From Candidatus Thorarchaeota archaeon (GTDB lineage: Archaea > Asgardarchaeota > Thorarchaeia > Thorarchaeales > Thorarchaeaceae), in the NCBI GenBank assembly GCA_048882045.1, contig JBHLRZ010000050.1:1-12922 (forward strand): a DNA stretch of 12,922 nt, written 5' to 3'. Under the pieces are notes generated by a model that did no database searches, was not told where the DNA came from, and worked only from the letters and a program-made list of their open reading frames with translations. This document shows, piece after piece, positions 1 to 12,922 of this stretch. Made by a program: the position numbers and the translations under genes. Within the stretch, counting starts at the first letter, position 1. Every line of letters starts with the position of its first letter.

Positions 1-920
1 ATCATCCCAATGGTCCCATGATCTCCCTGTACTCCTCCCTTGATCCTCTGAGTTATTGGGGGTAGCCCTTCAATGACAATCTCATCGTACTGCGGAGTGG
101 CTTCAGCATATGCCTGGAAGTCCAGTTTGACTATCTGTTCGCCACTCTTTATACCCACTCCGACACTCTTGAGACCGAGCACATCTCCCTTCTTGATGGT
201 CGTAAACGAGTTGGTCACTTCCTTCTCAGCAATGAATGCTTCTGGGGGTAGCTCCTTGATCTCATCCAACCCAAGGTTCAATCCAGCATCAATCATCTGA
301 ATTGACTCTACAAGACCAACGTGTCCTGTGATCTCCCCAGTATCAATCTTCTTTCTGAACTCCTCTATAGTCATCCCTGTTCCGATCTTCTTCTGGAATG
401 ACGGTCTTCTGTGACTTGAGTTCATGTGACGTGTGACAGTGATAGTGTCCACATTCTGACATGGACCTGTGAGTACGATAGGTAACAGGTCCATGAGATA
501 ACCTGGGTTGATCCCAGTTCCCACCACAGTCTTGCCCACTTTCTTAGCAAGTCTATCCAGCTTCTTGGCTATGGTTGGTTGTTTCTTATATGGAAATGAA
601 AGTTCCTCACAGATTGATATCACGTCCAGTCCATTCTCAAGACAGGTCTCGATGGTTGATGTCACAGCCTCAAGAGCAGATGCTGTGGCAACTATGGCCA
701 CATCTGCTGGTGTAGCCTTGAGGACCATAATCAGATCATCCATGAGCGTGAGATCACTTTCAACTTCTTCAACCAGTTCTCCAATTGTCCTGTCCTTCAA
801 GTCTGGGTTTGCGTCGACCACTGCAACCAGCTCGAGGTTGTTCCTCTTCATTACTGCACTAGCAATATGGCGCCCCAGGGACCCGAATCCCACCTGTATC
901 ACTCTGAATGGTTTTGACAT
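1..920 (-). CDS. NAD(P)-dependent amine dehydrogenase / 2,4-diaminopentanoate dehydrogenase (Ord)-like, DapB-like Rossmann protein; 3' end lies outside the window
   Basis: Not in the ORF track because it has no stop in the window. Manual translation from ATG 920 gives MSKPFRVIQVGFGSLGRHIA (GxGxxG)...LVAVVDANP...DVISICEELSFP...VVGTGINPGYLMDLLPIVLT...FQKKIGTG...ITGHVGLVES...GGVQGDHGTIGM, open for 306 codons. The CEE, GTGINPG, GHVG and GGxxGD motifs are typical of the Ord/native amine dehydrogenase family. Confidence 0.85.
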   Translation of the reverse strand, partial: MSKPFRVIQVGFGSLGRHIASAVMKRNNLELVAVVDANPDLKDRTIGELVEEVESDLTLMDDLIMVLKATPADVAIVATASALEAVTSTIETCLENGLDVISICEELSFPYKKQPTIAKKLDRLAKKVGKTVVGTGINPGYLMDLLPIVLTGPCQNVDTITVTRHMNSSHRRPSFQKKIGTGMTIEEFRKKIDTGEITGHVGLVESIQMIDAGLNLGLDEIKELPPEAFIAEKEVTNSFTTIKKGDVLGLKSVGVGIKSGEQIVKLDFQAYAEATPQYDEIVIEGLPPITQRIKGGVQGDHGTIGM

Positions 921-1084
921 GGTTCTGTGCCTCGCTAGAAAGAAATTGAAAGAACTGAGTAATCAGTCTATCGAGATTGGCAGAATCAATCTTCAACAGC
1001 TCAAAAATTCATGCATCCTACGTTGATGAAAAGACTCATTTCAAAAGGGAGCTGTTGTCTATGGGAGAAAGCTGTGTCCAATTT

Positions 1085-1091
1085 GGAGGTG
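1085..1091 (+). promoter_or_regulatory. Shine-Dalgarno site GGAGGTG
   Basis: Matches the archaeal SD consensus GGAGGTGA and lies 8 nt upstream of in-frame TTG 1100. Confidence 0.6.
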
Positions 1092-1099
1092 GATACACA

Positions 1100-1879
1100 T
1101 TGTATATGGTCGCATCTTTGATTCTTCTTAGTGTGGTTTCATTTGTTCTCGCCTACCTTTGGCATCAGAGAATCAAAGGATTCGATACTCTGTTGTCTTC
1201 CATCAAATCTAAGTTTGACAGCGACAGTGTCGATAGTTCTCGTGACCGAGGATATGGACAGTGTATCTCTAACAATTGGGTCTTGGATAATATAGTACGA
1301 AGAAAAGAGTCCAGGGTTGGGGACTCGATACGCAGTTTCATCAATGAAAGGACTGTCATTGGGTTCTTTATAATGGGCATTCTTATCCATCCAGTAACGG
1401 CTTTCCTCGTAGTCCTGTTCTATAGAGTCTTCGCGATTCTAGGCGTATCCATCATAGTCCTTATCATAGCAATCTTTCTCGTTATAGCATCTGGAAATGT
1501 CAAGGCATCCCATGGGCTCCTCTCGTGGCTAAGGACGAAAGACTACACCGAACTGAATGCGAACGATGTAGTCTATGCAGAGGTGTCTTTCAAGACCCTC
1601 ACTTATTGGAGGAGGAATCTTGTTGCCATTGCTTTGTCTTCATTGATGCTGGCACCATGGGGCGAGCTCATCCCACAAGGAATTGCTCTTGCAACCTCAG
1701 GTTTTCTCATCACAATCTTTACTCTGGTCTATCCACCTGTAGCAGCAATCTCTCATGAACTCGCAATCATCATGATTCTTTATCTGATCCCACTAGGTGT
1801 TGCTTTGCTGTATCTCATCTCTAGAGCGGCAAATCGAGTTTCAGCGTATCTCAATGGAGACCTCCTCAGAAATCTATGA
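1100..1879 (+). CDS. Hypothetical polytopic membrane protein (about 6 hydrophobic segments)
   Basis: The track ORF is 977..1879. A strong SD (GGAGGTG, 1085-1091) lies 8 nt before in-frame TTG 1100 (ATG 1106 is an alternative), directly ahead of the first hydrophobic segment VASLILLSVVSFVLAYLW. The TTG at 977 would leave only 56 bp for two divergent promoters. No family recognised. Confidence 0.75.
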   Translation: MYMVASLILLSVVSFVLAYLWHQRIKGFDTLLSSIKSKFDSDSVDSSRDRGYGQCISNNWVLDNIVRRKESRVGDSIRSFINERTVIGFFIMGILIHPVTAFLVVLFYRVFAILGVSIIVLIIAIFLVIASGNVKASHGLLSWLRTKDYTELNANDVVYAEVSFKTLTYWRRNLVAIALSSLMLAPWGELIPQGIALATSGFLITIFTLVYPPVAAISHELAIIMILYLIPLGVALLYLISRAANRVSAYLNGDLLRNL

Positions 1880-1896
1880 TAATAATAACAGTAAAC

Positions 1897-2436
1897 TCAG
1901 TGCATCGAAAAAGATAGTACGAACACATACCACCCTGAGCTCTCAAGAAATCCCTCCTCGTACCCCCTCTTTCTGCAGAGATTAATGGCTGCAATATGGT
2001 CTGTATAGTATACAAAACCATCAAATCCATTCTCTGAAAAATAATCCTCGAAGAAGTCGAAGACCTGATGACCCAACCCTTTTCCTCGGTGATCAGTCTT
2101 CATCCAAAGTTCGTGCAGTTCAACCAGATTGTCTTTCTCTCCACCAAATAGCTGATGAAGACTGCTCCTGTCATCATCATCCCGAGGGTCGCCCGGAATC
2201 ATCTCCTCGGTAGTGGTTTCATGCCAAACGCAGTGACCGATAATCTCCCCGTCATCAGTCCAAACTATCAGATGATTAGGGTCTCTCATAATGTATCCTT
2301 CCTCATCTGGGCCGAGCTCAAATGGTCCTGGCTCTCTGCCAGTTCGCCTCACATAGAAATCACGAAGATCAGACAGTGTGCAATAGTACTTCTTGAATTC
2401 CTCAATGGTATAGGCTCCGACAAAGAAGTCTAGCAT
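1897..2436 (-). CDS. GNAT-family N-acyltransferase
   Basis: 179-aa ORF with the acyl-CoA-binding motif A (ELHELWMKTDHRGKGLG, RxxGxG) and the C-terminal motif B-like AAINLCRKRGY. Starts 11 nt after the MaoC gene stop. Confidence 0.85.
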   Translation of the reverse strand: MLDFFVGAYTIEEFKKYYCTLSDLRDFYVRRTGREPGPFELGPDEEGYIMRDPNHLIVWTDDGEIIGHCVWHETTTEEMIPGDPRDDDDRSSLHQLFGGEKDNLVELHELWMKTDHRGKGLGHQVFDFFEDYFSENGFDGFVYYTDHIAAINLCRKRGYEEGFLESSGWYVFVLSFSMH

Positions 2437-2447
2437 AGATCCACTCT

Positions 2448-3317
2448 CTAGATACTAAACGAAGCAGTCCCTTGAGTTAAGACTGAAACACCCTTTTCAT
2501 CGGTAGTTTCGAAATGCACAACCTGCAATCCCTCATCATTGACTCCCCCATCGTATACCTCGGTTGTGATGGTCTGATTCAGGAGTACAGGGCTCGAAAA
2601 ACGGTTGCTCATGCTCTTCAATCGAGTGGGGTCTCCGTCGAGAAGTCCGTCTACAATCGCCTGAGAAGCAATAGCCATCGTACACAGTCCATGGAGGATG
2701 GCACTGGGAAGTCCCACACTCCTAGCAATCTCATCGCTTTGATGGATCGGATTTTGGTCTCCTGAGGCCTCAGCATATCTTACGCCTTGGTCAGCAGTGA
2801 CCTTCACACTCATCTTCGTAAGCAGCTTTCCTCTCTCGGGAGCTTGAGCTTCCGGTGGAGCCTTTTTTCCTCCATCCGTCTTCTTGCCCCTCACTAGGAT
2901 CCGATAGTCCATCTGCACTACGATGTCATCATCACGTCTGCAGTATATCTCAAAGTCCAGTATCTCGTTCACACCACGTGTTTCAATGTTGACAATCTTT
3001 GCAGTCGTAAAGATTTCGTCACCTGGACTGAGAGCACTCCTCCATTTCATCTTGTGCTCTGCATGTACTGCTCGCAGGATGTTGAGGTCCATTCCTTCAG
3101 AGTCATCACCCAGTTGACTCAGTATGCCTGGTAGAAAGACGACAGGATATATCGGGGGCGGAACCAGTTCAGAGTCTGGTGCACTATATACCGGATTCTC
3201 ATCGTTGGTAGCCAGTGCATATTTTCGAATGCTCTCAGGCTTGACAAATTGGGACTCCACTCGATATTCCTTACCTAGAAACTCTCGATTCAGTTTTGGA
3301 TTCTCTTCAGTCATCAT
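2448..3317 (-). CDS. Double-hotdog MaoC/PhaJ-type (R)-specific enoyl-CoA hydratase / 3-hydroxyacyl-CoA dehydratase
   Basis: The C-terminal hotdog has an intact hydratase-2 motif (YAEASGDQNPIH...AILHGL). The N-terminal hotdog has a degenerate copy (YALATNDENPVY, lacking the His) and the segment RAVHAEH. The halves are joined by a K/P/G-rich linker (GKKTDGGKKAPPEAQAPE). ATGA overlap with the ligase stop, with GGAGG just upstream. Confidence 0.9.
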   Translation of the reverse strand: MMTEENPKLNREFLGKEYRVESQFVKPESIRKYALATNDENPVYSAPDSELVPPPIYPVVFLPGILSQLGDDSEGMDLNILRAVHAEHKMKWRSALSPGDEIFTTAKIVNIETRGVNEILDFEIYCRRDDDIVVQMDYRILVRGKKTDGGKKAPPEAQAPERGKLLTKMSVKVTADQGVRYAEASGDQNPIHQSDEIARSVGLPSAILHGLCTMAIASQAIVDGLLDGDPTRLKSMSNRFSSPVLLNQTITTEVYDGGVNDEGLQVVHFETTDEKGVSVLTQGTASFSI

Positions 3318-4996
3318 TGACCCTCCAACTTGGCTTGTTCTTCCTCCCTAAGGATTTTCTTGTGAATCTTCATTATGAGTGTGAGGGGAAGCTCATCTCT
3401 GAACTCGACATATTTTGGTACGGCATATGGCTTGACCTTGTCCTTGAGGAACTCGATTATCTCATCTTCAGTTACTTTGCCTCTGAACTCAGGTTCGAGC
3501 TGGATGAAAGCTTTGACACGTTCACTCCCAGGTCTCTCAGGATCTGGTACGCCAATAACACCAGCCACCTCAACAGCTGGATGTTCATGGAGGATGTCAT
3601 CAATGACACGACTGTACACCTTGTTACCTCCGACATTGATCATGTCCTTGATTCTGTCCACCACTGTGAAGTAGCCGTCCCCATCCATCTGAACCATGTC
3701 TCCCATCCTCAACCAGCCACCCTCCTCGAGACCTGAACCTGCGGTCGGCCAATATCCCGCCATGATCTGTGGGCCTCTCACCCAGAGCTCACCAGGATCT
3801 CCAACAGGAGGTTCCTCCCCGGTTTCCGGGTCGACGACTTTAATCTCTGTGTCAGGCACGGGAACTCCAACTCCTCTTTTGACCTGTTTCATGAATCCTG
3901 TCACTTTCGAGAAGGCTGAGATGTTTACAGTAGTCCCTGCTGTAGTTTCTGTCGCGCCATATCCCTCGCCCATCGGAACCCCGGATATCTTCTCAAATTC
4001 CTCGGCAAGCTCTGGTGGTAGCGCTGCTGCGGCTGAGTAGTAGAAGATCTGTCCTTTCTTCAATGGCATATCACAGAATGCGATATAGTGGGCTGGTACT
4101 GCAAAGACAATGGCAGGTCGATACTCATTGATGACCTCTACAATCTTCATCATGTCGCGAGGGTCCATCAGGAATATCTTGAGCCCCCACGAGATACTTG
4201 CATGTATTGCCCAGTGTCCATAACTGTGGAATATTGGCACACAGATCGCTGTCGCCCCTTTCCCAACGATGCCCACTTTTAGTGGATCCATCATCCAGTG
4301 TACTGTCTGGACGACATTGGATGTGAGATTGAAGTGAGTGAGCATGGTCCCCTTTGGAACTCCTGTAGTGCCCCCGGTGAAGGGTAGTAGTGCGATGTCC
4401 GTCTTTGGGTCGATCTCGATCTCCTCGGTATGAGGTTCATGATCTGCTATCAGGTCATCCATGAGGTAGTATCCTGGCTCTGTTATCTCCTCTATTTGAG
4501 GGGCTTCATAGTCTGGAAAGAGCTTGGTAGGTGCGTAGATGACAGTCTTTACATTTGTGTCTGGTTTTACCTCATTCACACGGGGAATTCGTCTATAGGA
4601 ACAGACAACAAACTCTGTGTTACTCTCCTTGAGCTCGTGCTTCAAGTCATCAGCCTTATGAAGAATGCTCAATGGGACATGGATGGCTCCAATCTTCATG
4701 CAAGCATAGTCTACAATAATGAACTCAGGGCAGGATGGAAGAACTGTGGCAACAGCAGTGCCTTTACTGACACCAAGATCAACGAGTGCTGAAGCCAGAC
4801 GGTCAACTTTGTCCTTCAACTGCGGATAGGTGATCTCCTCATCCGCATAGACACACGCTATCACGTCTCGGTATTCTCGGGCTGAATCTTCTAGGAACTT
4901 GTAGACATTGATCTCAGGATATGGTTCCATAGAGTGCTTCAGTTTGTACGGACCCAGGAAGTAGGCTTTAAGCCAGGGCTTGTCTTGATAACTCAC
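3314..4996 (-). CDS. AMP-forming acyl-CoA synthetase (long-chain fatty acid-CoA ligase, FadD-like)
   Basis: P-loop FTGGTTGVPKG, GYGATET, GELWVRGPQIMAGYW, DRIKDMINVGG, VPKYVEFRDELP and the C-terminal catalytic Lys. The track starts at GTG 5005, but that GTG lies inside the SD AGGTGA (5007-5002). GTG 4996 has the same 5-nt spacing as the SCP2 gene and is preferred. Confidence 0.92.
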   Translation of the reverse strand: MSYQDKPWLKAYFLGPYKLKHSMEPYPEINVYKFLEDSAREYRDVIACVYADEEITYPQLKDKVDRLASALVDLGVSKGTAVATVLPSCPEFIIVDYACMKIGAIHVPLSILHKADDLKHELKESNTEFVVCSYRRIPRVNEVKPDTNVKTVIYAPTKLFPDYEAPQIEEITEPGYYLMDDLIADHEPHTEEIEIDPKTDIALLPFTGGTTGVPKGTMLTHFNLTSNVVQTVHWMMDPLKVGIVGKGATAICVPIFHSYGHWAIHASISWGLKIFLMDPRDMMKIVEVINEYRPAIVFAVPAHYIAFCDMPLKKGQIFYYSAAAALPPELAEEFEKISGVPMGEGYGATETTAGTTVNISAFSKVTGFMKQVKRGVGVPVPDTEIKVVDPETGEEPPVGDPGELWVRGPQIMAGYWPTAGSGLEEGGWLRMGDMVQMDGDGYFTVVDRIKDMINVGGNKVYSRVIDDILHEHPAVEVAGVIGVPDPERPGSERVKAFIQLEPEFRGKVTEDEIIEFLKDKVKPYAVPKYVEFRDELPLTLIMKIHKKILREEEQAKLEGQ

Positions 4997-5026
4997 CGTA
5001 ATCACCTATGCCTTAGACATTGGTCC

Positions 5027-6892
5027 TCAATAAATCTGGTCAATGAGCCACTCGAGACCCAGCTCAGTCAGTTTCTCCTTGGTCGGCTTTCCATCCTGAT
5101 CCCAGCCACGAAACTCATAGTAGCTGTCGAGAATCGGGTCTAGATTAACAACAAGTCCCTTTGCTGGTCCCTCGGGCATTGGGTCCTTTAGGAGTCGTGG
5201 CGGAAGAGTATCATCAGCTCGAGTTGCCCCTTCTCGAATGTTGTAGACCTTCTCCATGTTGTAGATTCTCTCTCCAGTCCTTCTGAAGTCCTCAGCTGTG
5301 TATTCGATTCCCATCAGGTTGGATAACAGAACAGCCCAGTCTTCGGCGGTCATAACTATGCCCATGAACTTACAGGCTCCGACAGCATCAAAGATCTGAA
5401 AAGCATCCTCGAAGTCCTTCAGGATTACTGACTTCTCTGGTATCTCTTTCTGTGGGTCACCAACATCCGCATCATCCACAACCATGAATGGCATCGATAG
5501 GAAGGCTGGTCCCTCTATCCATGCTGTAATGTGGTCTCCACCACGGTTTGCTGTGGCATAGGCCAGGCCTGTTATCTTCGCAGCTCGGCTGTCATATGCT
5601 GGAAGCTCCAATCCCTTCACATTCATTGCAAAGTGCTCTGAACCTTGTCCGAACTTCTCTGCCATTCTCTTTGTACCAAGTGCCAGGATGTCACCAAATC
5701 CCTCCCGCATAGCTATCTTTGGAACGATGTCGACAATGATGTCCTTGTCGCCAAATCTGAACTCTAAACCACCAGTTTCTTCTTTGGTGACGATTCCTTT
5801 CTCAAAGCACTCCATCACAAAAGCCACTGAAGTTCCTGCTGAAATCACATCGAGACCATAGTCATTACAAAGGAAGTGCGCCATGGAGATTGCTTCAAGA
5901 TCATCGACTCCACATATGCTGCCAAACGCACCGATGGTCTCGTATTCCGGTCCCTCTCCTCTGATCCTGCCTCCTTTGATGTCGGATACTCGTCCACAAG
6001 CAATCGGGCAGGCAAAACAGGGCTTTCGTTCAACAAGAATGGTGTCGTTCAAAGCAGTGCCATTGATGTTCTCGGCACCCTCGAAGATTCCGGTCTGAAA
6101 GTTTCGAGTGGGTAGTCCTCCCACTACTTGACACAGGTCCACCATTGTGGCTGTTCCATAGACCTCGAGGGTCATCTTGAGCATACTCTGGTTTACCCAG
6201 TCAAACCTCTTCTTGGCCTCAGTTCGGTACTCCTCGGGATTGGCGACAGGGATTTGTGCCTTACCATAGGACACCACGGCCTTCAGGTTCTTCGAGCCCA
6301 TCACGGTTCCAAGACCGCACCGACCTGCTGCACGACCGTAATAAACATCATCGCAGTCGTTCATGATCGCAGCATAGAGTACACCGTTCTCTCCAGCAGG
6401 ACCAATACACGATACATTGTGCTTTGGTCCGTGTTTTTCCTTCAGAATCTTCGTTGTTTCTGAGGTGGTCTTCCCCCAGATTTCTGAAGCATCATAGAGC
6501 TCTGCTTTTCCATCTTCGGTGAGAAGGTAGACAGGTTTCGGTGAAACTCCTTCAAAGATGATGCCATCAAACCCCGACCGCTTGAAGTCCTTTGCCCAGA
6601 ATCCTGCAGAGTTCGCCTGGCCCCAGAAACCAGTCAGGGGTGATTTAGCCACAACACTGTATCTCCCTGCGCTTGGAGAGGGCGTTCCTGTCAACGGTCC
6701 AGTCATGAAGATCAATTTGTTCTCCGGACCGAGAGGGTCGATTCCTGGATTGGTCTCTCTAATCAGATAGTATGTTGCAAGACCTGCACCACCCAGATAT
6801 TTCCTCAGTACTTCGTCGTCTGGAAACTCTTCTGTTATAGTCCCGTCGGTGAGGTTGACACGCAGAAGCTTTCTCATATATCCCTTTAGCAT
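5027..6892 (-). CDS. aor: Tungsten-dependent aldehyde:ferredoxin oxidoreductase (AOR family)
   Basis: 621 aa. Motifs include KYLGGAGLA, DPLGPENKLIFMTGPLTG, KSPLTG, AAGRCGLGTVMGSKNLKAV, the [4Fe-4S] ligands CFACPIAC plus the distal DAVGACKF, GPEYET, GLDVIS, KGLELPAYDSR, NRGGDH and YYEFRGWD...LTELGL. Confidence 0.95.
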   Translation of the reverse strand: MLKGYMRKLLRVNLTDGTITEEFPDDEVLRKYLGGAGLATYYLIRETNPGIDPLGPENKLIFMTGPLTGTPSPSAGRYSVVAKSPLTGFWGQANSAGFWAKDFKRSGFDGIIFEGVSPKPVYLLTEDGKAELYDASEIWGKTTSETTKILKEKHGPKHNVSCIGPAGENGVLYAAIMNDCDDVYYGRAAGRCGLGTVMGSKNLKAVVSYGKAQIPVANPEEYRTEAKKRFDWVNQSMLKMTLEVYGTATMVDLCQVVGGLPTRNFQTGIFEGAENINGTALNDTILVERKPCFACPIACGRVSDIKGGRIRGEGPEYETIGAFGSICGVDDLEAISMAHFLCNDYGLDVISAGTSVAFVMECFEKGIVTKEETGGLEFRFGDKDIIVDIVPKIAMREGFGDILALGTKRMAEKFGQGSEHFAMNVKGLELPAYDSRAAKITGLAYATANRGGDHITAWIEGPAFLSMPFMVVDDADVGDPQKEIPEKSVILKDFEDAFQIFDAVGACKFMGIVMTAEDWAVLLSNLMGIEYTAEDFRRTGERIYNMEKVYNIREGATRADDTLPPRLLKDPMPEGPAKGLVVNLDPILDSYYEFRGWDQDGKPTKEKLTELGLEWLIDQIY

Positions 6893-6924
6893 ATCGAACT
6901 CAATCCAGTTGATGTAAGACTTTG

Positions 6925-7374
6925 TTAATCGTAGAACTCGGTATCTATTGTTGTGGCACTGACTACCAACTCTTTGGCAGCCTCTGTAGCACGTAGTACC
7001 TTGGGCATGTCACCAGTGACTCTTGCCTGTCCTGAGAGTAATGCTCGAATCGGGTCCAATTCTTTCTTCAGAATCTTTTCCCAGACATCAATTCTCGCTG
7101 AATAGACGAACTCAACCTCAAAAGGTTCGCCAGTGGGAGTATCTCCCTTCTCAAGCATCTTGTATTTTTCACCCTCTTTCAGAATGGCACATCCGGTGCA
7201 TTTCCCTTTGTGAAGGCCTACCCACATCAAGATCTGCTTCTTGAGCCCTTCGTGTGGGTCTACTTGAAAGATGAAGTCACCAGTCCACCAGTCTGCAGCC
7301 TTTGCATAGTTCTCGTTGGAGTTGACAGCATCTATGTAGAGTTCAGCCCATTCTGGAGATGCAAATTTCACCAT
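6925..7374 (-). CDS. SCP2 (sterol carrier protein 2) lipid/acyl-CoA-binding domain protein
   Basis: MVKFASPEWAELYIDAVNSNENYAKAADWWTGDF...WEKILKKELDPIRALLSGQARVTGDMPKVL matches the prokaryotic stand-alone SCP2 pattern (F.S.EW...N...Y..AA..W.G; LDP..A...G....GD). ATG 7374 lies 5 nt after SD GAGGTGA and is preferred over the track's GTG 7383. Confidence 0.88.
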   Translation of the reverse strand: MVKFASPEWAELYIDAVNSNENYAKAADWWTGDFIFQVDPHEGLKKQILMWVGLHKGKCTGCAILKEGEKYKMLEKGDTPTGEPFEVEFVYSARIDVWEKILKKELDPIRALLSGQARVTGDMPKVLRATEAAKELVVSATTIDTEFYD

Positions 7375-7379
7375 GTCTT

Positions 7380-7387
7380 TCACCTCA
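7380..7387 (-). promoter_or_regulatory. Stop codon overlapping the SD of the next gene (TGAGGTGA); translational coupling
   Basis: The minus strand reads CAC TGA GGTGA AAGAC ATG, so the TGA of the upstream gene forms part of GAGGTGA. Confidence 0.7.
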
Positions 7388-7798
7388 GTGTTTTACCTTA
7401 TCAAGAACCAATATCTTCGGCAGAGCCAAGAGCTTGCCATATGCTCTTCCCTTGAATCTGAGTTTTCTCTTTCCGAAACGGTTCTTCTTCATCATCATGT
7501 GAGTAACAGAATATTGTCCATTACAGAAGAACATCAGATCCTCAGGATCTGCGATCAGCTCGAGATCACACTCGTCTAGAGCATCCTTAGATACTGTATA
7601 GTTGCCGCCTTCAGCAATGAGATTGATCCACAGAATCTCATCTTCTTCGACGTGAAGTCCGATGTTAATTCTGCCTTCGAAAGAGTCCAATCTTTTTGTG
7701 TTCTTTGGGTTCTCTCTCTTGTCGGCAATTATCCCATCGATTACGGACTTTATAGTCAGAAATAATGTGTCCTTCTGAGCGTCATCCATTGTTCTCAC
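7385..7798 (-). CDS. Divergent SCP2-fold-like protein
   Basis: 137 aa (GTG 7798; ATG 7789 is an alternative). The pattern WINLIAEGGNYTVSKDALDECDLELIADPEDLMFFCNGQYS...KLRFKG...KLLALPKIL parallels the SCP2 C-terminal half. Coupled to a clear SCP2 gene. The fold assignment is by eye only. Confidence 0.65.
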   Translation of the reverse strand: MRTMDDAQKDTLFLTIKSVIDGIIADKRENPKNTKRLDSFEGRINIGLHVEEDEILWINLIAEGGNYTVSKDALDECDLELIADPEDLMFFCNGQYSVTHMMMKKNRFGKRKLRFKGRAYGKLLALPKILVLDKVKH

Positions 7799-8333: not shown

Positions 8334-11300
8334 ATGTTGAGGAATAGTCGAGTTTGTCTACTTGTTGTTACATTTGGTTTCATGTTGATCTTGATTGGTA
8401 CCGCGTCTATCGTTACTCCCGTTGTCGATGTCAATAGAGTGTTTCAATCTCCGAGAGAAAATATCTTAGGTCCAGAGATAGATCCTGTGATTCTCGCTTC
8501 TCACACTTCACATGACCCAATCCGTATCGAAGGTGACGCTGACTTTGCCGCACAGGCTTCTGCAGAGGGGTGGCCTGGTACTGGAATAGAAGTAAATCCC
8601 TATGTGATTGAAGGACTCAGGATTGAAATCACAAGCGCCAATCAGAATGGTATTTTGATCCTTGATACAACTGTTCACTTCGAGATTAGAAATTGCTACT
8701 TCACAGGTGCACATGGCACAGACGAATATGGAGCTGTCAGTGGCATCCATCTTCTTCATGCTTCAAATGGGTATATTTTTGGTAATCTCTTCGTAGATAA
8801 TGGAGTAGGCATTGGATTAGGTGTTGTAGATCCTGATATTTCTGGGCTTGAGTCCAACATGAACCGCATCGAGGAGAACAATTTCACCAACAGCGGCATA
8901 GGTATTGCAGTCTTCTGGTCCTCAAACAACGAGTTATTGGGAAACTGGTTTAGAGAGAGTGAAATCTTCCTCTGGAATGCCTTTGATAACGTTATAGACT
9001 CCAACATTGGCGCTCCTGGATGGATTTCACTTCTTGGCTCTTCAATGAACACTATCAATGGAAATGATCTTGGCATGGGAGGTCAAATTACAGTCTTACA
9101 AATCGACTCTCCATATATAGTAGGCTCCGATGACAATACAATTACGAACAATGTGGTTTCAGGGATTGATCTTTATGAGTCGGATTACAACCTAGTTGAT
9201 ACAAATACTATCTCTCTAGGTAATGATGGAATTTACATCTCTAGATGTATAGGCACAACAATCACGAACAACAAAGTATTCCTCTGCAACTCGGGAATAC
9301 GGGTCGATGAATCTGGACGGACAGTCATCTCCAACAATGGGATTATGAATAACGGCCAAGGTCTTGTCCTATATGGCAGTCGAGACACTGATGTCAATGG
9401 AAACGGGTTCATCCATAATGATGTAAATGCTGAGGTGGCTGGTTCACTTGGTGGCGAGGTCCTTCATAACAACTACTGGTTTGATTATACAGGGGTCGAT
9501 GCCAATGATGATGGCATCGGGGACACTCCTTATGTTGGTGTGGGTTTTGAAGACCTGACTCCCCTGATTCGACACAGCTACTATCGCATGGAAATCACAA
9601 TTGATGGTGATCTTGATTTCGAAACACAAGCACTAGCAGAAGGATGGTCCGGTGATGGATCGAGCAGTCACCCTTACATCATCGAAAACTACTGGATATC
9701 TGCTGAAGATTATGGTCATGGCATCAGTATAAAGAATCTCTTTTCCTCAGAGTTTGTTATTCGCAATTGCTACCTAATATCTGGTATTTATGGAGTCTAT
9801 CTAGATGAAGTAGAAACTGTTGCGCATGTGGAGGACTGCACTTTCTTCCTTAATGAATATGGAATCTATGGGAAGACCCTGATGAATAACGAGGGTTATA
9901 CGTACATCATGAGGAGTGATTTCTACTACAACAATATCGCAGTGTACCAATCCATGAGAGGCGCTGGAATCTACGAAAATAATTTCGTCGAAAGTGTTGC
10001 TGGTGTTTACATAGAATGGACAATGCTACCTGTGGACCTTGTTCAAAATGTATTCTCAGAGATTCAGGGAAACGCAATCCATCTCTATGAATCAATTGTC
10101 AACGAAATTAGGGAGAACCAAATCTCTTCCTTGGAAGGGTATGGTATTCTCTTGGATGCTTGCGAAAAGGCTTATGGTTCAGCCATCCTAGGTAACTTCG
10201 TGCTGAATAGCCAATATGGTATCTATCTAACTCAAGGAGCAGGTAGTTTAGAAACTCGAGATTTTTGGGTAGCAAATAACATGTTTAGGGGTGTCATTGC
10301 CGATGCTGTCGACGATGGTCTTGGAAATATCTTTGAAACCAATGTGTTTTGGAGCTATAGTGGAACTGACGATAATCAAGACGGTATCGGTGACACATCT
10401 TACATCCTAGAAGGAACAGCAGGCAATCAAGATTCATACCCATTAATGGGGTTGTGGTGGCAAACTCCTCCATCTGACCAAATGATTGACCTCGGGCAGT
10501 CATTTGAGTACGACCTTGACTTCGAGCCTTATGTACTTTATATTGGACCCTCTTTCGAGGAGTACTTTTGGACAGGTCAGGTCTGGTCCATAAGTGATAC
10601 TGAACATTTTATGATTGACAGTCAAGGCACCATCACTAATATCGCACCGCTCTCTGGAGGAATCTATCCTCTCGAGGTGACTGTCAGGGGTGGTGGCGTA
10701 CTGAGAGGAGAATTTACACTGACTGTCATTGCTCCAAACACTCCTCCTGTGGCTGCAGATGATGCCTACGAAACAAACGAGGATGAGATACTGATAGTTC
10801 CAGCTCCTGGCATACTGCTTAATGATGATGATGTGGATTACGATCCGCTTGAGATATACTACACAATACCCGCCCTGATAGGTGGGCTCTCTGTCAATCC
10901 AGATGGCTCTTTCACTTACGAACCTGCTCCAGATTGGTTTGGAGAGGAATCCTTCACGTATGTGCTATTTGATGGAACCGATTACAGTAACGAGGCAACT
11001 GTGACAATCACTGTCTTACCAGTGAACGATCTTCCTGTTGCAGTAGATGATGCTTATTCAGTTGATGAGGACAATCAGCTGGTCGTTTCCATGCCTGGAG
11101 TCTTGCTGAATGACTTTGATGTAGATGGAGATCCCTTCGCAGGAATCTCGATTGTCATTGGCCCCTCCAATGGTGCGCTTGAACTCTTTGCAGATGGGTC
11201 TTTCGTATATACCCCCGGTCCAGATTTCTCTGGAATTGATATGTTCACCTATATTGTATCTGAAACTGGTGGTGGTCCAACTAGCAATATAGCCACAGTA

Positions 11301-12922
11301 ACCATCACAGTGAACCCGGTGAATGATGCTCCTGTAGCAGATGCTGGAGGTTCTTATTTTGCTGATGAAGGGTCATCGATAACATTTGATGCATCCAGTT
11401 CCAGTGATGCAGACGGAGATCAACTACAGTTTCGATGGGACTTTGATGGTGATGGGAATTGGGATACAGAGTGGAGTACTGATCCCACAGCATCATACAC
11501 TTGGGAGGATGACTTTGTTGGTGCAGTTACAGTGAATGTCACTGATGGCGAATTCTTCATCATAGCATCTGCAACTGTGACTGTCTACAATGTTGCCCCC
11601 TCTGTTGATGCAGGTGAAGATCAGACAATCAATGAAGGTGATAGTATTGACTTTAGTGGATCCTTCACGGATTTGGGGATTCTCGATACTCATTCGATAG
11701 TTTGGGACTTTGGTGATGGTTCACCAGTTGCTGCAGAAACTCTCTCGCCTTCCCATGTGTTTTCAGACCCTGGAGTCTATCTCGTCACTCTGACAGTGAC
11801 AGATGATGATGAAGGCGTTGGTGTCGATTCATTAACTATAACAGTTCTTGACTTGACTCCACCAATGACTACTGCGAGCTTAGACAGACTTCCTGATTTT
11901 GCTGGTTGGTACCATTCAGGTGTCATCGTTACACTAGAATTTACAGATACAGGATCTGGTGTGGCAACAACTGCCTACAGATATGAGGGAATTCCGTGGA
12001 CTGAGTACACTGGACCGTTCATTTTTTCGCTAGAGGGAGGAAAGATACTAGAATTCAATTCAACTGACTTTGCTGGAAATGTGGAATTAACAAAAACTCT
12101 GGAGATTCTGATTGATAAGATGGCTCCTGTACCTACTATTTCTCTGGATGGGGTTTTGGGTGAAGATAATTGGTACATCTCAGATGTAACAGTGACATAT
12201 TCTGTAGCGGATGGGGATTCTGGAGTGGGGTGGTGTTATTTCGTGTTCTACAATGCTCAGGGAACTGAGTGGAATCTTGAAGAAACCTACTATGATGGAT
12301 TAGCTAGTGCTGAATTCATCCTTACAACTTCTCTAGAAAGCGGAGAACTATGGGCTTGGATGAATGTTTCTGATGTTGCAGGAAACTGGGTTATTGATGA
12401 ATTAGTTTTCAAGGTCGATAAGACCCCTCCTGAAACTTTGATGACAATCGAATCCTCTCAATGGGGAATGGAAGATTCGGGCATTATCTGGACTAAATAT
12501 CCAGTCACTCTATGTTTTGACTGGGAGTTCTCTTCGGATGCCACATCCGGATTTGCATTGGTTGATGACACTGTTCATCCAAATCTCTATGGTGTGATGT
12601 ACCGAATTGACGGTGGAGAATGGGTCTATCTGAATGAGGAACAGATCAATCCATGGCTGATTGGTGATCCCTGGATGTTATACCCAGAGTTTCAAGGCCG
12701 AATTCCATTAACCACAATGAACTCAGAAGGACTCCACATCATTCAATGGTCCTCAATAGATGTCGCTGGTAATGTCGAGCCAATTCATGAGGTCACCTTT
12801 GGAATAGATATGACCATTCCTAATGTGATTCCGACAATCAGTGGTTCACAAAACGAAGGTTGGTTCAGTACAGATGTCAACGTGAAATTCTCTGCCACAG
12901 ATTCACTGTCTGGACTGGTTGA
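8334..12922 (+). CDS. Large secreted/cell-surface protein: signal peptide, 2x right-handed beta-helix (NosD/CASH-like), cadherin/Ig-like repeats, 2x PKD, Ig-like (OmpL47-type) repeats; 3' end lies outside the window
   Basis: Not in the ORF track because it has no stop in the window. ATG 8334 follows SD GAGGAG (8320-8325). N-terminus MLRNSRVCLLVVTFGFMLILIGTAS is signal-like. The same frame is open to the end of the window (...FSATDSLSGLV), 1529 codons. Motifs include GWPGTGIEVNPYVIE, NNYWFDYTGVDANDDGIGDTPY, NTPPVAADDAY...DGSFTYEP, WDFDGDG, WDFGDG and D.AGN. Confidence 0.92.
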   Translation, partial: MLRNSRVCLLVVTFGFMLILIGTASIVTPVVDVNRVFQSPRENILGPEIDPVILASHTSHDPIRIEGDADFAAQASAEGWPGTGIEVNPYVIEGLRIEITSANQNGILILDTTVHFEIRNCYFTGAHGTDEYGAVSGIHLLHASNGYIFGNLFVDNGVGIGLGVVDPDISGLESNMNRIEENNFTNSGIGIAVFWSSNNELLGNWFRESEIFLWNAFDNVIDSNIGAPGWISLLGSSMNTINGNDLGMGGQITVLQIDSPYIVGSDDNTITNNVVSGIDLYESDYNLVDTNTISLGNDGIYISRCIGTTITNNKVFLCNSGIRVDESGRTVISNNGIMNNGQGLVLYGSRDTDVNGNGFIHNDVNAEVAGSLGGEVLHNNYWFDYTGVDANDDGIGDTPYVGVGFEDLTPLIRHSYYRMEITIDGDLDFETQALAEGWSGDGSSSHPYIIENYWISAEDYGHGISIKNLFSSEFVIRNCYLISGIYGVYLDEVETVAHVEDCTFFLNEYGIYGKTLMNNEGYTYIMRSDFYYNNIAVYQSMRGAGIYENNFVESVAGVYIEWTMLPVDLVQNVFSEIQGNAIHLYESIVNEIRENQISSLEGYGILLDACEKAYGSAILGNFVLNSQYGIYLTQGAGSLETRDFWVANNMFRGVIADAVDDGLGNIFETNVFWSYSGTDDNQDGIGDTSYILEGTAGNQDSYPLMGLWWQTPPSDQMIDLGQSFEYDLDFEPYVLYIGPSFEEYFWTGQVWSISDTEHFMIDSQGTITNIAPLSGGIYPLEVTVRGGGVLRGEFTLTVIAPNTPPVAADDAYETNEDEILIVPAPGILLNDDDVDYDPLEIYYTIPALIGGLSVNPDGSFTYEPAPDWFGEESFTYVLFDGTDYSNEATVTITVLPVNDLPVAVDDAYSVDEDNQLVVSMPGVLLNDFDVDGDPFAGISIVIGPSNGALELFADGSFVYTPGPDFSGIDMFTYIVSETGGGPTSNIATVTITVNPVNDAPVADAGGSYFADEGSSITFDASSSSDADGDQLQFRWDFDGDGNWDTEWSTDPTASYTWEDDFVGAVTVNVTDGEFFIIASATVTVYNVAPSVDAGEDQTINEGDSIDFSGSFTDLGILDTHSIVWDFGDGSPVAAETLSPSHVFSDPGVYLVTLTVTDDDEGVGVDSLTITVLDLTPPMTTASLDRLPDFAGWYHSGVIVTLEFTDTGSGVATTAYRYEGIPWTEYTGPFIFSLEGGKILEFNSTDFAGNVELTKTLEILIDKMAPVPTISLDGVLGEDNWYISDVTVTYSVADGDSGVGWCYFVFYNAQGTEWNLEETYYDGLASAEFILTTSLESGELWAWMNVSDVAGNWVIDELVFKVDKTPPETLMTIESSQWGMEDSGIIWTKYPVTLCFDWEFSSDATSGFALVDDTVHPNLYGVMYRIDGGEWVYLNEEQINPWLIGDPWMLYPEFQGRIPLTTMNSEGLHIIQWSSIDVAGNVEPIHEVTFGIDMTIPNVIPTISGSQNEGWFSTDVNVKFSATDSLSGLV
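10737..11321 (+). repeat. Two tandem ~96-99-aa cadherin-like / Big_9 (tandem-95) repeats within the surface protein
   Basis: Repeat 1 from 10737: NTPPVAADDAYETNED...PGILLNDDDVDYDPL...DGSFTYEPAPDWFGEESFTY...SNEATVTITV. Repeat 2 from 11025: NDLPVAVDDAYSVDED...PGVLLNDFDVDGDPF...DGSFVYTPGPDFSGIDMFTY...SNIATVTITV. Confidence 0.85.
11322..11849 (+). repeat. Two PKD domains within the surface protein
   Basis: NDAPVADAGG...FDASSSSDADGD...WDFDGDG (Trp at 11436) and NVAPSVDAG...WDFGDG (Trp at 11703)...HVFSDPGVYLVTLTVTDDD. Confidence 0.85.
11850..12922 (+). repeat. At least four Ig-like (OmpL47-type) repeats within the surface protein
   Basis: Units begin DLTPP (11850), DKMAP (12114), DKTPP (12417) and DMTIP (12807). 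All four contain D..SG; the three complete units also contain D.AGN. Confidence 0.75.

Follow-up and report, generated by a model that had tools for sequence, protein, structure and literature searches.

Aldehyde:ferredoxin oxidoreductases (AORs) are reversible enzymes, able to reduce also unactivated acids, while the handling of branched and very-long-chain acyl-CoAs is a known property of peroxisomal MFE-2. In Asgard genomes, AORs rank high among the oxidoreductases in both number and expression, and most of them are unclassified (PMC11291895). The Asgard papers searched contained, indeed, many unclassified AORs and no SCP2-AOR-ligase module; no characterised SCP2-assisted AOR pathway emerged from the papers searched on SCP2 and AOR, or on SCP2, tungsten and acyl-CoA, in agreement with an earlier note on this DNA, which knew of none. 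The DNA analysed here, called the window, comprises 12,922 bases from the start of contig C50 in a Candidatus Thorarchaeota genome (3.6 Mb in 93 contigs, 93% complete), and it carries a row of six genes, g1 to g6, coding for two small proteins with an SCP2 fold, an AOR, an acyl-CoA ligase, a MaoC-type protein and a GNAT acetyltransferase. The first four are a core that is kept together across Asgard archaea, and the reading that we favour, with slightly more confidence than doubt, is that this core is the basis of a carrier-assisted, ferredoxin-linked route leading from a hydrophobic aldehyde to the acid and to acyl-CoA.

A scan of one genome per species identified g2 homologues in 79 loci, which are all from Asgard archaea. 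A locus was considered as linked when it had, within 3 kb of the g2 homologue, an AOR with over 60% identity and/or a ligase with over 55% identity to those of the window; orthologous AOR and/or ligase genes were found at this distance in 73 of the 79 loci, and in the remaining six a contig end lies close to g2. Three gene orders were observed: g1-g2-AOR-ligase, the same as in the window, in 14 loci, all from close Thorarchaeota (order A); an AOR-ligase pair divergent from g2-g1, in 18 Thorarchaeota loci (order B); and AOR-ligase-g2, with g1 7-9 kb away, in 41 loci from genomes of the Loki, Hod and Hermod types (order C). The linkage has therefore survived rearrangement, and the SCP2-AOR-ligase synteny, which the earlier note needed to extend beyond close relatives, reaches Thor-, Loki-, Hod- and Hermod-type genomes. 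The g1 and g2 genes are adjacent in 36 loci. Of the 301 genomes sampled from the phylum, 197 contain the g2 family, as do 67 of the 90 that are of high quality. Every close homologue of the window proteins is labelled as belonging to Thorarchaeota or to other Asgard archaea.

The g3 gene (5027..6892, minus strand) codes for a 621-aa protein of the AOR family, whose members are tungsten/molybdopterin enzymes, and is of the tungsten type; the AFOR_N and AFOR_C domains were recognised in it with 260.9 bits (cut-off 29.8) and 467 bits (cut-off 27), respectively. Its best match in the Protein Data Bank (PDB) is the P. furiosus AOR (1aor; 539 bits, about 50% identity), and the similarity to the other PDB members falls progressively through the Aromatoleum AOR, FOR, WOR83, BamB and WOR5. 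In the comparison with 1aor, the ligands of the 4Fe-4S cluster correspond to Cys292, Cys295, Cys299 and Cys507 of g3, and the catalytic Glu/His residues to its EGPEYE and GGDHI segments; in the AOR alignment (A3) the first three cysteines are invariant and Cys507 is nearly so. No gene for an Fe-S or FAD subunit adjoins g3.

A FastTree phylogeny of 144 AORs, among which were 62 linked Asgard AORs and g3 itself, placed all these 63 sequences in one clade with a support of 99; thus, SCP2-linked AORs do form a clade, as the earlier note had proposed to verify. The SCP2-linked Asgard AORs are 68-94% identical, and all the nine AOR paralogues of this genome fall outside the clade, with at most 41% identity. 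When g3 was compared with 1.8 billion cluster representatives, the best one showed 59% identity (812 bits) and the next one 49% (578 bits). The former (P0221) is the sister of the linked clade (support 100) and derives from a short contig, in which a ligase gene overlaps the AOR stop. The next relatives are AORs linked to Fer4_11 genes, devoid of SCP2 or ligase neighbours; the small genes that stand beside outgroup AORs, of 151 aa in L093 and of 148 aa in L091, are not g2-like.

The first two genes had been labelled as SCP2-like and SCP2 in the earlier note, a label that agrees with the predicted structures, in which both g1 and g2 have the SCP2 fold, but that finds weak support in Pfam for g1 and none for g2. 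The g1 gene (7385..7789, minus strand) codes for a divergent protein of 134 aa (family A2), which scores 18.3 bits with the Pfam SCP2 model (PF02036), below the gathering cut-off of 21.3, and the profile of its family gave no match by sequence in the PDB. Its AF2 model (pLDDT 84) was instead recognised by Foldseek, as the top PDB matches are all SCP2 proteins, namely 2cx7, AF1534 (3bn8) and the Yarrowia SCP2, with E of about 1e-4 and TM of 0.52-0.65. The family includes more than 235 homologues, so far only from Asgard genomes and metagenomes. The g2 gene (6925..7374, minus strand) codes for a 149-aa protein (family A1) of the type of Thermus TT1886/TTHA0401. Pfam gives no SCP2 match for the window protein, though many g2 homologues score; both its AF2 model (pLDDT 92), which retrieves the Thermus SCP2 structures 2cx7/1wfr with E of 5e-10, TM of 0.77/0.89 and 28% identity, and the profile of the family, which reaches the same structures at E of 4e-19, assign it to SCP2 by fold as well as by sequence relationship. 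The protein carries a charged loop of 20 residues and, at residues 55-59 (7198-7212 of the window), a G-x-C-T-G motif whose Cys is invariant in the family alignment (A1); the motif aligns with H-G-A-C-R-G of Thermus TT1886, H-G-x-C-x-G being common to both. This Cys might be part of the cavity lining, or it might react with aldehydes. A predicted complex between AOR (A3) and g2 (A1) had a score of 0.02 and was not used as evidence either way.

The g4 gene (3314..5005, minus strand) codes for an AMP-forming acyl-CoA ligase of 563 aa, an ANL protein of FadD-like type, with an AMP-binding domain (287 bits) and an AMP-binding_C domain (57 bits). The TGGTTGVPKG, GYGATE and DRIKD motifs and the C-terminal Lys are present, so that the core motifs A3, A5, A8 and A10 are all represented. 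The best NCBIfam model is PRK06187 (357.8 bits against a cut-off of 476); all the curated models remain under their cut-offs, and an assignment as long-chain FadD is not reached. The orthologues of g4 are 59-89% identical and adjoin the AOR in nearly all the loci. In 15 Thorarchaeota loci of order B (L029-L032, for example), AOR and ligase even make up one reading frame without an intervening stop codon, in which about 35 residues link the two enzymes. The fusion couples what one enzyme produces to what the other consumes and therefore favours the sequence from aldehyde to acid to acyl-CoA; the oxidative direction is favoured because the free acid is the intermediate common to AOR and ligase. 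The presence of SCP2 proteins together with a FadD-like ligase suggests that the predicted substrates have long or branched chains.

In the route that we favour, g1 and g2 would bind a poorly water-soluble substrate, whose aldehyde group would be oxidised by the AOR to the free acid with reduction of ferredoxin; the ligase would then convert the acid into its acyl-CoA at the cost of ATP. This cost may be offset by the low-potential ferredoxin obtained from the AOR, the thermodynamics of low-potential electrons in the acid/aldehyde couple being established. A fourth step would be confined to this genus, where the MaoC-type protein g5, encoded behind the ligase, is the probable hydratase for this acyl chain at its enoyl-CoA stage, in an (R)-specific beta-oxidation. 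The gene structure, the folds, the intact motifs, the conserved linkage, the AOR-ligase fusions and the distinct AOR clade are observed; the carrier function, the oxidative direction, the hydrophobic nature of the substrate and the role of g5 are inferred from them.

Several observations weigh against this route. The window encodes neither an aldehyde-forming enzyme nor a ferredoxin, and HHalign detected no relationship between the g1 and g2 families. The solved structures nearest to g4 include 8weu/8wev, 3g7s and 4CL, and since these relatives are a mixture of fatty-acyl (FadD-type), feruloyl- and 4-coumarate-CoA ligases, the substrate could equally well be aromatic or of medium chain length. 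Lastly, the part of g5 and g6 in the pathway is weakly grounded, because MaoC and GNAT genes are not conserved with the module.

These points leave some room, although not much, for a moderately hydrophobic aldehyde deriving from amino-acid fermentation, either aromatic or branched-chain as for the P. furiosus AOR, which would be recycled to acyl-CoA. The resemblance of g3 to this broad-range enzyme and that of g4 to feruloyl- and 4-coumarate-CoA ligases agree with such a substrate, as does the view of Asgard archaea as peptide and amino-acid degraders (PMC11291895). Further support comes from the genes that follow the operon in relatives within the genus, on the same strand and with gaps of 21-143 nt. 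They code for an Ord-like dehydrogenase of amino-acid type and for a class-III aminotransferase; the pair comes after the operon in L015, L018 and L021, and straight after the ligase in L014. However, these neighbours are limited to this genus, and two dedicated SCP2-fold proteins would be odd for small soluble aldehydes; in the present assembly, moreover, no orthologue of the aminotransferase was found. This alternative appears unlikely.

As for the arrangement in the genus, the GNAT gene is directly followed in relatives by the Ord-like dehydrogenase gene, and in this genus the operon may extend beyond the six genes to the Ord-like and the aminotransferase genes. The two genes, GNAT and Ord-like, are only 20-55 nt apart in L100 and L015. 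In the window, an Ord-like (DAP_DH_C) dehydrogenase gene is found at 3..920 on the minus strand, cut by the contig start. The class-III aminotransferase was considered as the aldehyde source in this genome and rejected, as no orthologue was found in the assembly at E 1e-20; the gene is possibly unassembled, the contig starting inside the Ord-like gene.

The ORF listing and the domain scans placed all the six open reading frames (ORFs) on the minus strand, where the earlier note had located six co-oriented genes. For g1, the gene is confirmed, but not its end at 7798, which corresponds to an upstream GTG, as the ATG at 7789 fits the MD start of all the homologues. The gaps given in the same note hold for four of the five junctions. 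The g1 and g2 genes are separated by 10 nt, and the stop of g1 lies inside TGAGGTGA, a Shine-Dalgarno-like string; 32 nt separate g2 from g3; g5 starts on the ligase stop with a 4-nt ATGA overlap; and 11 nt lie between g5 and g6. The remaining gap, between g3 and g4, was given as 30 nt, which is valid for a GTG start at 4996, while it is 21 nt if translation starts at the GTG at 5005; the latter start is likely, because it fits the MIT.. beginning of the closest relative, L015. A T-rich tract follows g6. The six-gene cluster is real and operon-like, and it is built around the conserved four-gene Asgard module; spacing and strand are what supports a putative common transcript of g1-g6. A scan for promoters and terminators gave results near the shuffled expectation, with a bacterial consensus that is uninformative for an archaeon; a search for repeats around both operon ends found nothing relevant. 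The Rfam scan of the window gave no match, and therefore no riboswitch of the Moco type is present in it. Upstream of the operon, and divergent from it across a spacer of 535 nt, a very large gene (8334-12920, plus strand) codes for a surface-type protein of more than 1529 aa, with NosD/beta-helix, cadherin-like, Big_9 and PKD domains, which runs past the end of the window.

The g5 gene (2448..3317, minus strand) codes for a 289-aa double-hotdog protein of the MaoC/hydratase-2 type, matching MaoC_dehydratas (98 bits) and FAS1_DH_region (59 bits). The C-terminal hot dog contains S-G-D-Q-N-P-I-H, the Asp/His motif of hydratases 2, while the N-terminal half is degenerate; the best PDB matches are 3kh8 and the hydratase 2 of MFE-2 (1s9c). 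On this basis, g5 is probably an (R)-specific enoyl-CoA hydratase. An orthologue was found in 18 of the 28 genomes of the genus. In nine loci it lies away from ligase and GNAT genes, and in the three of these nine that were scanned (L104, L107 and L110) it adjoins an SDR (adh_short_C2) gene, convergently in L104 and L110; this MaoC-SDR pairing fits a role of g5 in (R)-specific beta-oxidation. The SDR orthologue of the present genome (69% identity) is located at the start of contig C81.

The g6 gene (1897..2436, minus strand) codes for a small GNAT N-acetyltransferase of 179 aa, matching Acetyltransf_1 with 42.7 bits against a cut-off of 20.7 and containing the R-G-K-G-L-G acetyl-CoA loop; no relative was found by sequence in the PDB, and the atlas search returned generic GNAT clusters only. 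The acyl transfer attributed to it in the earlier note was a guess. The enzyme may acetylate the catalytic Lys of the ligase, as GNATs of the AcuA/Pat type do, or, alternatively, it may belong with the Ord-like dehydrogenase and aminotransferase genes that follow the operon in relatives.

The earlier note had also read all the six genes as one obligate route, in which the GNAT would carry out an acyl transfer and the aldehydes would be long-chain, isoprenoid, ether-lipid or steroid-like. In favour of it are the tight packing, the ATGA overlap between ligase and MaoC genes and the recurrence of the same six genes in the close relatives L015, L018 and L021; in addition, the combination of SCP2 and hydratase 2 recalls peroxisomal MFE-2. 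The distribution of the last two genes, however, does not sustain a conserved six-gene route. It is only in a part of one genus that the core has MaoC and GNAT genes attached to it: the g5 orthologue stands behind the ligase in seven genus loci, with the GNAT gene either before or after it. In L014 the ligase is followed by neither, and in L022 the 3 kb that follow the ligase downstream show no MaoC and no GNAT; no homologues of the two were found in the loci of order B or C. In L102 the g5 orthologue keeps its GNAT and Ord-like neighbours, with no ligase in the 900 bp upstream, and the nine loci with a separate g5 orthologue argue in the same direction. Nothing is specific to one lipid class, be it ether lipids, plasmalogens or steroids, and the obligate route appears quite improbable; as judged from these gene arrangements, MaoC and GNAT are recent and movable local additions to the core.

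Two further arrangements concern the GNAT gene. In L019 (SOKL01000101.1, 1265-2632, Thorarchaeota E44_bin77), on a contig of 2.6 kb, a GNAT homologue comes directly after g1-g2, with no AOR, ligase or MaoC gene between them, which may be due to a deletion of the enzyme genes or to a different layout. In the window, a 300-aa ORF convergent to the operon (977..1879, plus strand) lies between GNAT and the Ord-like gene; it has no Pfam match, and the atlas search gave nothing above lead level. A second genome of the genus (L102) has a copy with 61% identity in another place, upstream of the GNAT gene. The ORF looks like a movable accessory gene.

The core is also connected with alcohol dehydrogenases. 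Of the 26 loci with g1 apart from g2, an arrangement seen in Loki-type genomes, 23 have g1 back to back (divergent) with an Fe-type alcohol dehydrogenase (Fe-ADH) gene, a pairing that would add a step from alcohol to aldehyde. In the present genome, one g2 paralogue (L097, G000:C22:42183-45371) belongs to a row consisting of a thiamine pyrophosphate (TPP)-dependent enzyme, a Zn-type alcohol dehydrogenase (Zn-ADH) and the SCP2 gene (149 aa, Pfam SCP2 36 bits), which is a second unit combining SCP2 with an alcohol dehydrogenase; the other, on contig C15, is an SCP2 gene about 5 kb upstream of an Fe-ADH-AOR pair. The g1-Fe-ADH pairs and both g2-paralogue loci indicate that SCP2-fold genes of the g1 and g2 families are repeatedly found beside oxidoreductases acting at the alcohol/aldehyde level. 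A reductive use of the system, in which AOR, with or without an alcohol dehydrogenase, would make fatty aldehydes or alcohols from fatty acids with reduced ferredoxin and the SCP2 proteins would hold the products, agrees with the reversibility of AORs and with these g1-Fe-ADH pairs, but it appears very improbable, as the ligase, whose gene shows the closest linkage to that of the AOR and is even fused to it, would compete for the free acid, and no thioesterase releasing acids from acyl-CoA is conserved alongside the module.

In the C15 locus (L096, G000:C15:53098-61063), the SCP2 gene (138 aa) is followed by a radical-SAM/SPASM cassette, which holds two small ORFs and a methyltransferase-TPR gene, and this in turn by NMO-like, Fe-ADH and AOR paralogue genes; the cassette appears to have been inserted into an older SCP2...ADH-AOR neighbourhood. 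An AOR of the same type as that on C15, with 37% identity, is found just upstream of g2 in L023 (JAEOUA010000005.1, 577-14461), a locus with two g2-like genes and two AORs, where the orthologous AOR-ligase pair lies downstream. The second AOR type adjoins g2 also in L024 and L028.

Equally improbable is the view that the SCP2-fold proteins are structural or scaffold subunits, as in UbiJ or in the SCP2 domain of alkylsulfatases, or are unrelated to the enzymes: SCP2 domains are fixed substrate-recruiting parts in SdsA1/Pisa1 and in UbiJ, both among the fold matches, and the invariant Cys motif and the family-specific loop of g2 would be in keeping with such a function, but a search for longer proteins with a g2-like domain, although rated as weak evidence, found no fusion to AOR or ligase, and the movement of g1 between AOR and ADH neighbourhoods fits a shared soluble partner better.

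The carrier-assisted aldehyde route may be part of a wider system. As a tentative proposal, to which we give a lower probability than to the core route, an Asgard-wide SCP2 system might pass water-insoluble alcohols, aldehydes and acids between Fe-ADH, the special AOR clade and the ligase, providing an O2-independent, ferredoxin-linked entry for long-chain or isoprenoid compounds. If true, this would be the first AOR system depending on lipid carriers, and its logic would be that of the SCP2/MFE-2 machinery in eukaryotic peroxisomes. If the carriers do deliver hydrophobic aldehydes, it would be explained how strict anaerobes feed fatty and isoprenoid alcohols and aldehydes into beta-oxidation and gain low-potential electrons at the same time. 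The fixed ligase partner of the SCP2-linked AOR clade, the natural fusions and the two proteins with a lipid-carrier fold make its substrate directly testable. The contribution of the window is an unfused form of the core that is followed by genes for a hydratase-2 enzyme and a GNAT.

Among the described systems, the P. furiosus AOR and the other single-subunit AORs share with g3 the two-domain architecture, the aligned Cys ligands and the Glu/His segments and, as 1aor does, the absence of an adjacent Fe-S or FAD subunit gene. Unlike 1aor, g3 is a member of a distinct Asgard clade whose genomic partners are SCP2-fold proteins and an acyl-CoA ligase, the latter being fused to the AOR in some genomes; no SCP2 or ligase partners of characterised AORs are described in the papers searched. 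The catalytic subunit of the AorABC-type enzyme of Aromatoleum aromaticum (8c0z) matches g3 with 457 bits, and the nearest outgroup representatives (P0222, P0223, P0225 and P0259) share the AorABC-type (Fer4_11) gene context. These AORs are accompanied by a Fer4_11 electron-transfer subunit and often by MoaD and flavoprotein genes, all of which are lacking in the window operon; conversely, they are without the SCP2 and ligase neighbours that characterise it.

As for the carriers, TT1886/TTHA0401 of Thermus thermophilus (2cx7, 1wfr) is a relative of g2 in both sequence and fold, from which g2 differs for the charged insertion of about 20 residues and for the linkage to the AOR-ligase pair. Peroxisomal MFE-2, which consists of SDR, hydratase 2 and an SCP2 domain, and SCPx recall the presence of the hydratase-2-type g5 and of SCP2-fold genes in the same operon, and the g5 orthologues located beside an SDR gene in relatives correspond to the two catalytic parts of MFE-2. 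Unlike in MFE-2, however, the genes are separate, the SCP2 proteins are linked mainly to the AOR-ligase pair and the linkage with the hydratase occurs within one genus only. UbiJ (6h6o), from the ubiquinone-synthesis metabolon, is found among the fold matches of g1 and g2, and although its pathway and partner enzymes differ from those of the Asgard module, it offers a working analogy, namely that of a small SCP2-fold protein that lets soluble enzymes use a water-insoluble intermediate.

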